In this document: positions 8,158-27,062 of the stretch, one piece after another
Layout of the letters: every line of letters begins with the position of its first letter
Position numbering within the stretch: position 1 is the first letter of the stretch
From: a virus
Reading direction: 5' to 3' (one strand)
IMG/VR virus record: IMGVR_UViG_3300037484_001834
Length of the DNA stretch: 28,588 nucleotides
The notes under the pieces: generated by a model
The model's database searches: none
What the model was told of the DNA's origin: nothing
Seen by the model: the letters and a program-made list of their open reading frames with translations, nothing else
Position numbers and translations under genes: made by a program

Positions 8158-8228
8158 TATCTTATATAAGATACCCACCACGTCAAGATCTTTCGTCGTT
8201 TTGGCCTTACATTCTCAAAATCCGAGAC
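8158..8228 (-). promoter_or_regulatory. Promoter P1: palindrome TTATCTTATATAAGATA (8158-8174) over the -10, -35 TTGACG (rc of 8181-8186), upstream dyad TTCTC-N7-GAGAC (8212-8228)
   Basis: Read directly; same architecture as P2-P9. Confidence 0.55.
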
Positions 8229-9458
8229 TTATGGCTTTTTGACGGGCTGACAGGGAACGTCGTCTTTTCCAAAGACGTAGGATTCATAGCCAGCAGCCCT
8301 GATGCTTCCCATGCCTTGGTACTCCTCAAGCCATGAGTCAAGACCAACTGGGTCCGGCCGCCAGATGCGTGTCGTTTGATTCTTATCGAGCTCGCAAAGC
8401 ACGATGGAGGCCGCCGGGTCGCTCAGGGCATCGAGGAAGCGATTAGAATGCGTCGCAATGAGCATGGGGGCTTTTTTGGCCATTTCCTCAAGCATCCAAA
8501 CGACTCTGGATTGAAGAGCAGGATGCAGATTTACTTCCGGATCGTCAAAGGAGAGGATCGAGGGCGTGGTGCTCCCCGCAGGACCTGCGGTCAGCAGGGT
8601 GCTCCCCGCAGGGGTTTCATGAAGCGCGCTGAGCGCGACAAAGGCGAGGTAGCTTCGCTGCCCATCGGACATCATGCTTACCGGCAGGGATTTTCCGGAA
8701 AGCGACCCAAAAACCGCTTCGAGCTCGATATCGGAAGCTCCTGAAGGCTTTAGAACGAGGTCCTTGAGATCGGCCGAAAGTCCGAGTCGCGCCTTTTCCA
8801 AAACTTTTTGCCAGGTGTCTTTTCCCTGTTCGCGAAGTTTTTGGAATGCTCTTGGGAAGGTAAGGGTTTCTTCATGTGGGTGAGTTTTCTCCTTGATCGT
8901 GTAGGGCCAGCCACATTCGTGACCTGAATCGATCCGATCGAGCGCTTGGGCAAGGCGCTCCGTTTCCAGCGATACGCGTCGAATCTCCGGTAGGGCAAGC
9001 GCGTTGGGGGGAATAGATATTTTTTTGCCATTTAATGCATCGAATAGGGAAAGATCAACGACGTGATCGTTCCGCTTTTCCCGCAACATCACACGAACGG
9101 GCTTTTTGTCTTTGTGCACATCGATGCTTTCGTCAACAACGACTACCGAGCCGCCCAGGCAGGCCACGGCGAAGTCATAGTCTATTCTTGGCCCATCGCC
9201 TTCAATCGTGACCCCTAGACCGATCTGGTCTCTTCCTTGACGAAGAAGCGATTGGGCTCTTCCGTGAATTTTCATCGCGCCGTCTATGGATGGAGTTTTT
9301 CTGGCGGCGTGGCCGATGATATCGAGCGCATCGAGGATAGTGGTCTTGCCCGTACCATTACCTCCGATTAGTACCGTGAGCCCGCGAAGGTCCAGCTCGA
9401 TGTGATCGATTACGCGCAGGCCCGATATCCGAAGTTGAGTGATGCAGTCTTGACTCAT
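8229..9458 (-). CDS. ABC/OLD-type AAA ATPase (AAA_21/AAA_15-like) with no nuclease domain
   Basis: Walker A LIGGNGTGKTT, ABC-signature-like SDGQRSYLAF, Walker B/D-loop LSFDDPEVNLHP and H-loop IATHS. Start refined to the ATG at 9458, which forms an ATGA overlap with the upstream ORF stop at 9455. An in-frame PAGST repeat lies between the signature and Walker B. Confidence 0.85.
   Translation of the reverse strand: MSQDCITQLRISGLRVIDHIELDLRGLTVLIGGNGTGKTTILDALDIIGHAARKTPSIDGAMKIHGRAQSLLRQGRDQIGLGVTIEGDGPRIDYDFAVACLGGSVVVVDESIDVHKDKKPVRVMLREKRNDHVVDLSLFDALNGKKISIPPNALALPEIRRVSLETERLAQALDRIDSGHECGWPYTIKEKTHPHEETLTFPRAFQKLREQGKDTWQKVLEKARLGLSADLKDLVLKPSGASDIELEAVFGSLSGKSLPVSMMSDGQRSYLAFVALSALHETPAGSTLLTAGPAGSTTPSILSFDDPEVNLHPALQSRVVWMLEEMAKKAPMLIATHSNRFLDALSDPAASIVLCELDKNQTTRIWRPDPVGLDSWLEEYQGMGSIRAAGYESYVFGKDDVPCQPVKKP
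8568..8612. repeat. Two copies of ggtgctccccgcagg flanking an inverted CCGCAGG-A-CCTGCGG hairpin, in frame within the AAA ATPase gene
   Basis: Read directly. Confidence 0.85.
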
Positions 9459-9844
9459 GGTGATGTGCTCCAATTCCGCTCAGAAAGCCACGAGATAAGC
9501 TCCCCGTGGCGTTCTTCTGGTTTAAAAGTGCCTTCGATGGTCTTTCCATCAGTTACCTCGCCATGGAAGTCGCAAAATCCTTCAGGAGCGATATTGATGA
9601 GTATGGCGAAGTTTGATACGCGCCAGTGGATGTCGATGGACCCATCGGCCGCGGGCGTGATTTCTGGGGCGTCGATCGCGAGCCCGGTCTTCTGCATGAT
9701 TGTGCTCGCGATTCCTCTTAGGAAACTGGTGGCGCGCTCCCAGGTAACCGGTCTCATAGCAGGGCTTCCCTCGCCGTCCCAGTCTTCCTCGAGCTTCACG
9801 ATGAAGGACGACTGAGTGATGGCGCGTTCGATGGCTTCAATCAT
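9455..9844 (-). CDS. hypothetical 129-aa protein, translationally coupled to the AAA ATPase
   Basis: ORF with ATG at 9844. ATGA overlap with the ATPase gene. Confidence 0.5.
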   Translation of the reverse strand: MIEAIERAITQSSFIVKLEEDWDGEGSPAMRPVTWERATSFLRGIASTIMQKTGLAIDAPEITPAADGSIDIHWRVSNFAILINIAPEGFCDFHGEVTDGKTIEGTFKPEERHGELISWLSERNWSTSP

Positions 9845-9866
9845 GGCTAGTCGATTCGCGCCTATA

Positions 9867-25649: not shown

Positions 25650-25666
25650 TTATCCGGAAATCGTTT

Positions 25667-26953
25667 TCATCCCTTTATGCAAACAACCTGCCGGAGCGTA
25701 TGTACGATCTCGACCAGGTCGCGCTGGGCATGCATGACGGCGTCGATGGATTTATATGCCATCGGAGTTTCATCAATTACGTCCAAATCCTTTCGGCATT
25801 CGACGTTGGCCGTGGCGGCCTCGTGCTCGGCGAGTGTGAAGCGTTTCCGTGCTTTCGTGCGGGACATGGCCCGGCCGGCGCCATGACTCGCGCTATGCAA
25901 GCTTTGTTCGTTACCAAGGCCACGCACGATATACGAGCTTGTTCCCATGCTTCCGGGGATGATTCCCATATCGCTCTTGCGCGCACGTATTGCTCCCTTG
26001 CGCGTAACGAACACGTTTTCACCAAAATGGTGCTCCCACGCGACGTAATTGTGGTGGCAATTTATCGACAGACTCCCTCTCCAACTCTCCGATTCAAACG
26101 CTCTTCCCAGCCCCGTGTAACATAGCGCTTGCAGGACAGCAGACATCATCAGCTCGCGATTAATTCGCGCGTATTCCTGCGCCCACTCGGCGCCGAATAG
26201 ATAATCCTCAAAAATCTCTGTTCCTTGCGGCAGGTAGGCCAAATCAGGGTCTGGCAAATCTATGAACCACTTCCGCATGTGACTTTTGGCCAAATCGATG
26301 AAGTCACATCCGATGCGGTTCCCGACGCCGCGCGAGCCGCTATGGAGCATGATCCACACACGATCCTGCTCATCCAGGCACACTTCGATGAAATGATTCC
26401 CGCTACCCAAGGTTCCGAGGTGGTGGATATGAGGTCCTCGATCGAGGCGTGGGTACTTTTTTGCCAGACGCTCGTACCCGGCTTTCAATCCTTCCCATGC
26501 ACGGACTTGCGCCGCAGGGGGATCCTTCCAGGCTCCGGAGTCGTTTGGCCCGCCGTTATTCGTACGGCCGTGAGGCACCGCAGCCTCGATAGCGGAGCGG
26601 ACTTTTTGTAGATTATCGGGCAGCATGGAAGCGGTCATGTTGACTTGTTGCGCCATGACACCGCAACCGATATCAACACCGACGGCGGCGGGAATGATTG
26701 CGCCTTTGGTCGCGATTACACTTCCGATGGTCGCCCCCTTACCGGCATGAACGTCAGGCATCACGGCCACGTGGCGAAAGACGAACGGAAGTCGCGCTAC
26801 GTTCTCCAACTGAGCACGCGCCTCGGGCTCGAATGGAACGCCCACGGTCCAGCACTTGAGCGGCACGCCGCCTTCGACCGGAAAAATCAAGGCGTCTCCG
26901 GTCTTGTCCAGTGCGTAGTAAGCGACATCATCTGCTCTCGTCGTATCGGTCAT
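25667..26953 (-). CDS. rtcB: RtcB family RNA 3'-phosphate/2',3'-cyclic phosphate ligase
   Basis: Full-length RtcB signatures: metal-binding His/Cys positions, HSGSRG, HNY and SASHGAGR motifs. 428 aa. Downstream of promoter P9. Confidence 0.9.
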   Translation of the reverse strand: MTDTTRADDVAYYALDKTGDALIFPVEGGVPLKCWTVGVPFEPEARAQLENVARLPFVFRHVAVMPDVHAGKGATIGSVIATKGAIIPAAVGVDIGCGVMAQQVNMTASMLPDNLQKVRSAIEAAVPHGRTNNGGPNDSGAWKDPPAAQVRAWEGLKAGYERLAKKYPRLDRGPHIHHLGTLGSGNHFIEVCLDEQDRVWIMLHSGSRGVGNRIGCDFIDLAKSHMRKWFIDLPDPDLAYLPQGTEIFEDYLFGAEWAQEYARINRELMMSAVLQALCYTGLGRAFESESWRGSLSINCHHNYVAWEHHFGENVFVTRKGAIRARKSDMGIIPGSMGTSSYIVRGLGNEQSLHSASHGAGRAMSRTKARKRFTLAEHEAATANVECRKDLDVIDETPMAYKSIDAVMHAQRDLVEIVHTLRQVVCIKG

Positions 26954-27003
26954 GTTTCTTCCACTCTTTCAGTTCTTTTGTTCGAATCAAAAGGCAAAAG
27001 GTT

Positions 27004-27062
27004 ATCTTACATAGAATAGTTTCTTGATCAAGGAGAATCGGCCTTTCTCAAAAATTGAGAAT
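27004..27062 (-). promoter_or_regulatory. Promoter P9 for rtcB: TTGATC-N16-TAAGAT plus perfect dyad TTCTCAAAAATTGAGAA (27046-27062), 13 nt upstream of the -35
   Basis: Read directly. Same dyad-to-(-35) spacing as P8. Confidence 0.55.

Follow-up and report, generated by a model that had tools for sequence, protein, structure and literature searches.

The window analysed here, 28,588 nucleotides (nt) of the IMG/VR virus record IMGVR_UViG_3300037484_001834, covers part of a mobile element. A short inverted repeat, TTCTC-N7-GAGAA, recurs between its genes. This motif is real and non-random. It is strictly intergenic, has a single orientation, is conserved in relatives of the element and occurs independently of promoters. 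It shows no hairpin covariation. Our best explanation, which we hold tentatively, is that the motif may be a dispersed, oriented recognition site of about 21 bp for a DNA-binding protein of the element, acting as a repressor or roadblock.

An oriented 21-mer in the intergenic gaps

Exact copies of the dyad occur three times in the window (15733-15749, 21503-21519 and 27045-27061), compared to a mean of 0.06 in dinucleotide shuffles. None of 100 shuffles contained three. If up to one mismatch is allowed, the number rises to eight (adding 8212-8228, 19978-19994, 22256-22272, 18433-18449 and 27021-27037) with 1.98 expected, and again none of 100 dinucleotide shuffles reached it. All eight fall into the intergenic DNA, which makes up 5.3% of the window. 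A preliminary description of this DNA had proposed TTCTC-N7-GAGAA as a recurrent dyad. These counts bear it out, and shuffled sequence does not reproduce them.

A position-specific scan gives the same picture. With a 22-nt position weight matrix that was built with the scored sites themselves included, the six copies named in the preliminary description score between 27.4 and 36.7 bits. The next best match in the window scores 13.4 bits and the best match in 50 shuffles 14.1 bits. The score distribution in the window has no tail of degenerate copies. Three of the six coordinates had been off by one (15734 is 15733, 19977 is 19978 and 27046 is 27045), while 8212, 21503 and 22256 are correct. 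The six sites are as follows.

Site A, 27042-27063 (core 27045-27061), minus strand: CA-TTCTC-AATTTTT-GAGAA-AGG, a 7+7 palindrome of 32.9 bits; 9 nt past the stop of the TPR gene (27071-28144) and 13 nt ahead of TTGATC, the -35 of the rtcB promoter.
Site B, 22253-22274 (core 22256-22272), minus strand: TA-TTCTC-GGATTTT-GATAA-AAG; 98 nt past the stop of a gene for a major-vault-protein-like protein, after a terminator-like hairpin, and 13 nt ahead of a -35.
Site C, 21500-21521 (core 21503-21519), minus strand: CA-TTCTC-ACTTTTC-GAGAA-AAG; 3 nt past the upstream stop and 15 nt ahead of the ATG (21487) of a gene for 358 amino acids (aa); no promoter was found in the gap downstream.
Site D, 19975-19996 (core 19978-19994), minus strand: TA-TTCTC-GGATTTT-AAGAA-AGA; 3 nt past the stop of the open reading frame (ORF) 19998-20486; no recognisable sigma-70 promoter lies between the site and the FGE-sulfatase gene.
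Site E, 15730-15751 (core 15733-15749), minus strand: CA-TTCTC-GGTTTTT-GAGAA-AAG; 13 nt past the stop of a 138-aa gene and 9 nt ahead of TTGACT, the -35 of the Roadblock/OmpA operon promoter.
Site F, 8209-8230 (core 8212-8228), minus strand: AA-GTCTC-GGATTTT-GAGAA-TGT; abutting (0 nt) the stop of the AAA-ATPase gene (8229-9473) and 25 nt ahead of TTGACG, the -35 of the promoter of a 14-gene operon.

Read on the gene strand, the consensus is a 21-mer, yA-TTCTC-GGWTTTT-GAGAA-ARG. In 16 distinct sequences compared between window and relatives, little or no variation is seen in the A that precedes the dyad, at positions 2-5, in the T-run or in the A-run. Outside the 21-mer the 5' flanks are unrelated. 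The 3' flanks are loosely alike, and the subfamilies AAAGATC and GTCGATC share about 10 nt. The similarity thus ends sharply at the 21-mer, which argues for selection on the motif itself. Since spacer and flanks are asymmetric, the 21-mer has a direction. The minus strand carries all sizeable ORFs except one, and all copies of the motif are oriented with the genes; with nearly all genes on one strand, this is a weak test of orientation.

The usual position of the motif is just behind a gene. Five of the six window copies lie 0-13 nt past the upstream stop codon. This position and the orientation of the 21-mer on the minus strand go beyond the preliminary description, which was right that the copy at 21503 lies 16-32 nt upstream of an internal start codon (ATG 21487) with no promoter after it. 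It had also placed a copy on a ribosome-binding site. At site C the Shine-Dalgarno sequence AAGGA directly adjoins the dyad but lies outside it.

Sites C and D separate three tandem paralogues on the minus strand (19998-20486, 20411-21487 and 21523-21900). The three share the N-terminal motif (R/K)(I/L)W(I/V)LG..(P/S).(E/D/K)M..I(E/Q).LL, and their counterparts in a related contig (L001) are 24-35% identical.

Four further sequences resemble the motif, three of them as uncertain members.

27021-27037 (A'), minus strand: TTCTC-CTTGATC-AAGAA, one mismatch; its spacer is the -35 hexamer of the rtcB promoter.
18433-18449, minus strand: TTCCC-TTGACCC-GAGAA, one mismatch; centred on the -35 of the promoter in a divergent region.
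19939-19955 (D'), minus strand: GTCTC-GCACGCT-AAGAA, a weak second dyad of 10.5 bits adjoining the Shine-Dalgarno sequence and start of the FGE-sulfatase gene.
22306-22317: the short palindrome TTCTCGTGAGAA, directly after the terminator-like hairpin 22322-22355.

The two one-mismatch dyads at 18433 and 27021 overlap -35 hexamers. Site A' is possibly a true operator. The dyad at 18433 is kept as an uncertain member because it is poorly conserved in relatives: it reads TTTCC...GAAAA in L001 and L020 and is lost in L040. The short palindrome had been given as a compressed copy at 22348-22359; its actual position is 22306-22317. It reads TTCTCATGAGAA in L001 and L020, so that all three sequences hold a 12-bp TTCTC(AC/AT)GAGAA. 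Its half-site spacing differs from that of the other copies, and it is therefore probably not the same kind of site. The hairpin next to it (minus strand) follows the vault-protein gene and has a 13-bp stem. In L001 and L020 a T-run follows it, which is the layout of a canonical intrinsic terminator; the window has TGGG there instead.

Conservation, folding and promoters

About a dozen short metagenome contigs (L001, L020, L027, L039-L048 and L058) are related to the window at roughly 66-90% DNA identity. Orthologous sites are kept in them. Site B is identical in L001 and L020, and in an alignment of 82% mean identity the block from the dyad to the -35 is the same in three contigs bar two single-base differences. 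L058 carries a different mismatch there (TCCTC-GGTTTCT-GAGAA). Site E is kept in all 11 contigs that cover it (L027, L039-L046, L048 and L058), once with GACAA, and 20 of the 21 motif positions are conserved in its alignment. Both sites are more conserved than the intergenic DNA around them. The spacing between dyad and -35, which the preliminary description had proposed to compare among homologues, is also kept: 13 nt for site B in four contigs, including L058, and 9 nt for site E.

A matrix built from the six window sites only finds sites of 29-35 bits in the relatives. Among them are three groups that are not orthologous to any window site, all on the gene strand.

Group G: in the gap between two small paralogues, 35 nt ahead of the start codon.
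Group H: 16 nt before a start codon.
Group I, in L040-L043 (384-400 in L040): 44 nt behind the stop codon of a 149-aa gene, with the stop of an opposite-strand gene 3 nt away.

Group I lies between two convergent genes, of which the opposite-strand gene is the only one so oriented. L058 has the 149-aa gene but has lost most of the convergent gene, and it lacks site I. Sites C, G and H lie inside operons and have no promoter. At two equivalent positions the dyad and the promoter replace each other, with the dyad alone in one genome and a sigma-70 promoter alone in another. One position is ahead of the 358/355-aa gene (site C; L001 has a promoter and no dyad), the other ahead of the 138/131-aa gene. 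The breakpoints of BLAST synteny between the window and these dozen or so contigs fall at gene boundaries or inside genes, not at dyads.

Beyond these contigs the motif disappears. More distant elements (L002-L004, whose vault-protein homologue is 63% identical) carry neither the dyad nor the second palindrome described below. Neither do the IMG/VR contigs with homologues of the DUF3560-methyltransferase (L049-L057). In both sets the regulatory sequence is unrelated. Neither motif was found in the chromosomal-looking, putatively host-like contigs L059-L064. Scans of IMG/VR, JGI metagenome contigs and GTDB genomes for the exact extended motif returned single matches at chance level besides L020 and L027, and a literature search with the motif string gave no match. 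The absence from host-like contigs and distant elements shows that the motif is element-specific.

What is conserved is the sequence and not a fold. The dyad stem has 5 bp and is A/U-rich. When 41-nt contexts were folded, the structures were weak and no better than those of shuffles (z-scores between -1.4 and +0.8). No compensatory change was found among ten non-redundant copies. All four departures from the consensus arms (GTCTC, AAGAA, GATAA and GACAA) break a pair of the 5-bp stem, and the central C-U mismatch of GATAA is conserved in three contigs. No Rfam family reaches its gathering score. Such one-sided, uncompensated departures fit half-site recognition better than pairing. On the basis of folding and pair counting, we reject an RNA hairpin as the primary explanation. 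Like a Rho-independent terminator, the dyad is an inverted repeat just past stop codons. Unlike in such terminators, there is no G/C-rich stem and no U-tract after the dyad on either strand, and the terminator scan reports no dyad hairpin. The dyad is therefore not an intrinsic terminator. An alternative terminator at 15733, formed with the upstream CCGAG (15761-15743), does not generalise to the other copies.

Four of the six dyads are followed by a promoter. These promoters share a pattern (CTTGAC/T, 16 nt, then TAAAAT, TAAGAT or CAAAAT), and their -10 lies within the palindrome TATCTTAyrTAAGATA.

After site A, 27004-27031, minus strand: sigma-70-like promoter TTGATC-16-TAAGAT, with the palindrome TATTCTATGTAAGATA over the -10.
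After site B, 22215-22242, minus strand: sigma-70-like promoter TTGATC-16-CAAAAT.
After site E, 15696-15723, minus strand: sigma-70-like promoter TTGACT-16-CAAAAT.
After site F, 8159-8186, minus strand: sigma-70-like promoter TTGACG-16-TAAGAT, with the perfect palindrome TATCTTATATAAGATA over the -10.

The gap between dyad and -35 is 9 nt at 15733, 13 nt at 22256, 13 nt at 27045 and 25 nt at 8212. The preliminary description had given 13 nt for the copies at 22256 and 27045, which is correct. It had also placed the dyad upstream of promoters, but this is not the context that defines it. If window and relatives are taken together, only four of nine site groups have a recognisable promoter downstream; the other five have none, and group I lies between convergent genes. 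Conversely, of eight promoters of this family, four lack a dyad upstream (those at 12193, 16231 and 18444 and one near 12620). Among the 21 gaps of at least 17 nt, four contain both dyad and promoter, compared to about 2.3 expected, which is not significant. Dyad and promoter are therefore independent elements that often occur in one intergenic gap.

The palindrome over the -10 is a second recurrent feature. At least eight sigma-70-like promoters that are nearly identical to one another (CTTGAC, 16 nt, TAAAAT) have TATCTTAyrTAAGATA (or TAAAATA) over their -10, and the palindrome is conserved in L001, L020, L039, L040 and L058. It was located on the minus strand at the following positions.

8159-8174, 12166-12181, 12598-12613, 16204-16220, 18417-18433 and 27003-27018, minus strand: second palindrome.

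It may be either an operator or an unusually extended promoter consensus. Presumably it is the first dyad of the preliminary description, which had read the two motifs as two operator types in layered control. A second palindrome does lie over the -10 of the same promoters, and layering itself is possible.

A promoter cassette, GATAAAAGCC..AAAAGATTTCCCTTGACCCGAGRATTATCTTACRTAAAATAGARAATGARAGGAAA, is present in two near-identical copies (18399-18454 and 16199-16253) ahead of different genes. In the relatives it is single, double or replaced by the dyad. GATC, which is found in several -35 hexamers (TTGATC) and beside several dyads, is over-represented in the window as a whole, with 196 occurrences compared to about 109 expected from base composition. 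Its over-representation in the window is not specific to intergenic DNA.

Possible roles of the motif

We propose that a DNA-binding protein encoded by the element would occupy the 21-mers at the head of intergenic gaps. Bound there, it would repress transcription or block RNA polymerase arriving from the upstream cassette, as a roadblock or insulator. At sites that overlap a -35 or are 9-25 bp away from one, it would also help to silence the neighbouring sigma-70 promoter, jointly with whatever binds TATCTTAyrTAAGATA over the -10. We infer the protein binding, the repressive or roadblock direction of its effect and the cooperation with the second palindrome. We prefer such an operator or roadblock because it covers all properties of the motif with the fewest assumptions, namely the intergenic placement at the head of gaps, the single orientation, the promoter independence, the conservation of sequence, the restriction to one clade and the second palindrome over the -10. 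All the same, we would put it somewhat short of probable. A roadblock or a post-transcriptional action had been suggested before for the copy at 21503. The roadblock fits all copies best, whereas the route through a hairpin shows no covariation. The motif is thus better read as a dispersed operator or roadblock-like site at the boundaries of cassettes than as an activator site upstream of promoters.

Several observations weigh against an operator or roadblock. Searches of all sizeable ORFs in the window, which is only part of the element, against Pfam, NCBIfam, PHROGs and PADLOC gave no candidate binding protein other than the RelB/DinJ-type one, and the promoter of the RelB/DinJ-type gene itself has no dyad. 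Three cassette ends that come with a promoter (16258, 12651 and 12213) lack the dyad, and an insulator role, if there is one, would thus be limited to some cassettes. Both the spacer GGWTTTT, which is invariant, and the flanks are asymmetric, so that one would not readily expect a simple homodimer to bind here; this leaves room for an oriented signal such as a promoter or an RNA element. Finally, the orientation bias could merely result from copying within a one-directional genome.

The sole gene on the opposite strand (18455-18718, plus) diverges from the promoter at 18444, a position typical of a regulator. It encodes 87 aa with a weak DUF2188 match and is conserved in most relatives. A PDB sequence search with this divergent 87-aa protein identified no regulator. 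Single-sequence AlphaFold models reached a predicted local distance difference test (pLDDT) score of 59 for this protein and 67 for a 102-aa protein, too poor for fold searches.

If the 21-mer is indeed a repressor or roadblock site, then it maps the regulon of an unexplored mobile-element lineage, and it could be used as bait for the regulator. The cargo of this lineage is unusual: a major-vault-protein homologue, RtcB, orphan methyltransferases and defence-like ATPases. Dispersed operators that insulate cassettes, as in mycobacteriophages and IncP-1 plasmids, would then extend to another group. Control of this kind would be familiar rather than new in principle. Whatever the motif is, its practical value is modest. 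The arrangement follows a known logic and rests on sequence alone.

A close parallel is found in the stoperators of Cluster A mycobacteriophages. Stoperators are asymmetric, lie in promoters or in short gaps between genes and are oriented according to transcription; their block of elongation depends on this orientation (PMC9283540). In L5 (gp71) and TipsytheTRex they are fully asymmetric 13-bp sites read by a monomeric two-domain repressor (PMC9283540). As in these phages, one short motif is dispersed in many copies over promoters and short intergenic gaps; here six copies are strong and all are intergenic. The orientation follows transcription in both, with nine of nine site groups on the gene strand, although the near-uniform gene strand makes this a weak test. 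The placement independent of promoters is also compatible with a block of elongation. In contrast to stoperators, the motif here has about 21 bp with 5-bp inverted arms, and the sequences are unrelated. A repressor with a helix-turn-helix and a Stoperator domain was not found in the part of the element that the window covers (Pfam, NCBIfam and PHROGs). The probable host is not an actinobacterium, and the density of copies is lower (6 in 28.6 kb).

By analogy, a previously undescribed repressor might exert a stoperator-like, orientation-dependent block of elongation here, in a host that is probably of Myxococcota type. We regard this more specific version as doubtful. If it were true, then genome-wide silencing through roadblocks scattered between genes would reach beyond actinobacteriophages. 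In this element it would go together with a second operator, placed over the -10 of each cassette promoter.

Alternatively, the 21-mer might itself be a promoter for an RNA polymerase or sigma factor encoded by the element, giving the downstream genes a route of expression independent of the host. In this case the polymerase would recognise ATTCTCGG, melt the DNA at TTTT and start within the purine-rich GAGAAARG. A sharply bounded, asymmetric motif of about 21 nt that is co-oriented with the genes is compatible with a promoter. The copies without a sigma-70 promoter (C, H and G) sit 15-35 nt ahead of start codons with a Shine-Dalgarno sequence, and the dyad is swapped for a sigma-70 promoter at two equivalent positions. 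The least conserved motif positions, 13 and 15, would correspond to +1 and +3. However, neither the window nor the related contigs yielded a gene for an RNA polymerase or sigma factor. Transcription from site I would run antisense into the convergent gene at its 3' end. Positions 6-7 vary (GG, AA or AC) within what would be the specificity region, and at four sites a good sigma-70 promoter follows directly, so that a second promoter seems redundant. A promoter of this kind is thus unlikely. It would point to a hidden transcription apparatus.

We consider it similarly unlikely that the motif acts in the messenger RNA (mRNA), as a signal with or without a small UUCUC/GAGAA hairpin that separates or tunes cistrons. 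Its reader could be an endoribonuclease, a factor that stabilises 3' ends or attenuates, or a translational repressor. The single orientation on the transcribed strand fits an mRNA signal, and so does the position of five of the six window copies 0-13 nt past a stop codon. Sites C and H abut Shine-Dalgarno sequences, and the RNA ligase RtcB is encoded in the window. Against this stand the weak folds, the lack of compensatory changes and the four departures that all leave a base unpaired, together with the missing G/C-rich stem, U-tract and Rfam match.

The preliminary description had considered a class-I activator or a second repressor. We find it quite unlikely that the dyad is a class-I-type activator site or an UP-like element for the sigma-70 promoters downstream. 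Four copies do lie 9-25 nt from a -35, always on its upstream side, and the gap is constant among orthologues. The TTTT-NNN-AAAA part of the motif is similar to the UP-element consensus. A class-I activator requires a fixed helical phase to the core promoter, but gaps of 9, 13, 13 and 25 nt are out of helical register. The proposal fails on the irregular spacing, on the five of nine site groups that lack a recognisable promoter downstream and on the copy between convergent genes. Half of the eight same-family promoters lack the dyad, and dyads and promoters coincide no more often than is compatible with chance. The variable spacing also speaks against an UP element.

A second comparison is with plasmid RK2 of the IncP-1 group. 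There, OB is a palindromic operator bound by dimeric KorB. The operator OA of KorA lies over the -10, and OB lies either 4-10 bp or 45 to more than 1000 bp upstream (PMC11790492). Similar to RK2, two operator types would sit on the same set of promoters (PMC11790492, PMC2665229), one over the -10 and the other upstream at a variable distance, with some copies far from promoters. In both cases the system would be the global regulon of a mobile element. Yet the sequences differ, the core here is asymmetric and always oriented, and the window holds no ParB-family or KorA-like gene. With different sequences and neither a cognate repressor nor a ParB-type gene in the window, the locus belongs to neither the stoperator nor the KorB/KorA family. 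We give little credence to a related idea, in which the dyads would be loading or centromere-like sites for a ParB/KorB-type protein that serves partition as well as the silencing of proximal and distal promoters. Dispersed sites with palindromic arms at variable distance, and a second operator over the -10, do recall the arrangement of OB and OA (PMC11790492). However, no window protein contains a ParB-family domain, and an asymmetric core in strict orientation is unexpected for a symmetric clamp loader.

The dyad also recalls the PeSL cassettes of T4-type phages. These composites recur in intergenic DNA, begin directly behind the upstream stop and consist of an inverted repeat, an A/T-rich stretch, a sigma-70-like promoter and a Shine-Dalgarno sequence, in a mosaic region of genes without known function (PMC2839356, PMC4122927). 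The PeSL stem-loops are stable, G/C-rich and shown to terminate, unlike the 5-bp, A/U-rich dyad here. In addition, dyad and promoter are independent here (joined in four of nine groups), and no breakpoints were found at dyads in the dozen or so related contigs. It is quite unlikely that the dyad is only a boundary repeat of cassettes, without a regulatory role of its own and spread by recombination like PeSL mobile regulatory cassettes. In favour of such a repeat, the relatives are strongly mosaic with shuffled module order (L001, L020, L039 and L058), the 3' flank is alike over about 10 nt within subfamilies of copies (AAAGATC, GTCGATC), and a small dyad followed by a sigma-70 promoter recalls PeSLs (PMC2839356, PMC4122927). 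Against it, the similarity ends at the 21-mer with unrelated upstream flanks, no synteny break was found at a dyad, and orthologous copies are more conserved than their surroundings.

The element and its genes

The element belongs to a novel mobile-element lineage. A megablast search of plasmids and phages with the whole window found nothing, and neither did a tblastn search of phage and plasmid collections with the 617-aa protein. The nearest RtcB outside such elements is 78% identical and is encoded on the chromosomal-looking contigs L059-L064, which have a GC content of 63-66%. The element itself has 53%. The nearest taxonomically annotated cellular matches of RtcB and of the vault protein are labelled as Myxococcota or Deltaproteobacteria. 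Sequence similarity thus suggests an uncultivated mobile element (a phage, plasmid or island), probably of a Myxococcota-like host. The window, a JGI metagenome contig, has no terminal overlap and hence gives no evidence for circularity.

The proteins of the window include a RelB/DinJ-type protein, a TPR protein, RtcB, a 903-aa homologue of the major vault protein, an FGE-sulfatase-like protein and a fusion of DUF3560 with a methyltransferase. A Roadblock/LC7-OmpA operon, a PtuA/GajA-like AAA ATPase, an N6/N4 methyltransferase and several families known only from phage genomes are encoded as well. Altogether the window encodes two or three DNA methyltransferases.

The homologue of the eukaryotic major vault protein (22371-25082, minus strand), with MVP shoulder and vault repeat domains, lies in one operon with rtcB (25667-26953). 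In L001 and L058 a Mg-chelatase/YifB-like ATPase is encoded between or near these two genes. Metagenomes contain more than 5000 prokaryotic homologues of the vault protein, and those with a taxonomic annotation are labelled as Myxococcota or Deltaproteobacteria.

Gene order is strongly mosaic across the window, L001, L020, L039 and L058, which indicates frequent shuffling of cassettes. In L058 the cassette of site B, with its 107-aa gene, stands ahead of rtcB. In L020 a fragment of the gene at 5799-6335 lies beside a homologue of the gene at 18715-19101.

The gene of the RelB/DinJ-family antitoxin (28141-28401, minus strand) overlaps the start of the TPR gene and has no recognisable toxin partner. 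Upstream of it, at the G/C-rich end of the contig, the direct repeat CCCTTGCGGGGTGTG occurs twice (28478-28492 and 28572-28586), 94 nt apart. These repeats could be iterons or an end-related repeat.

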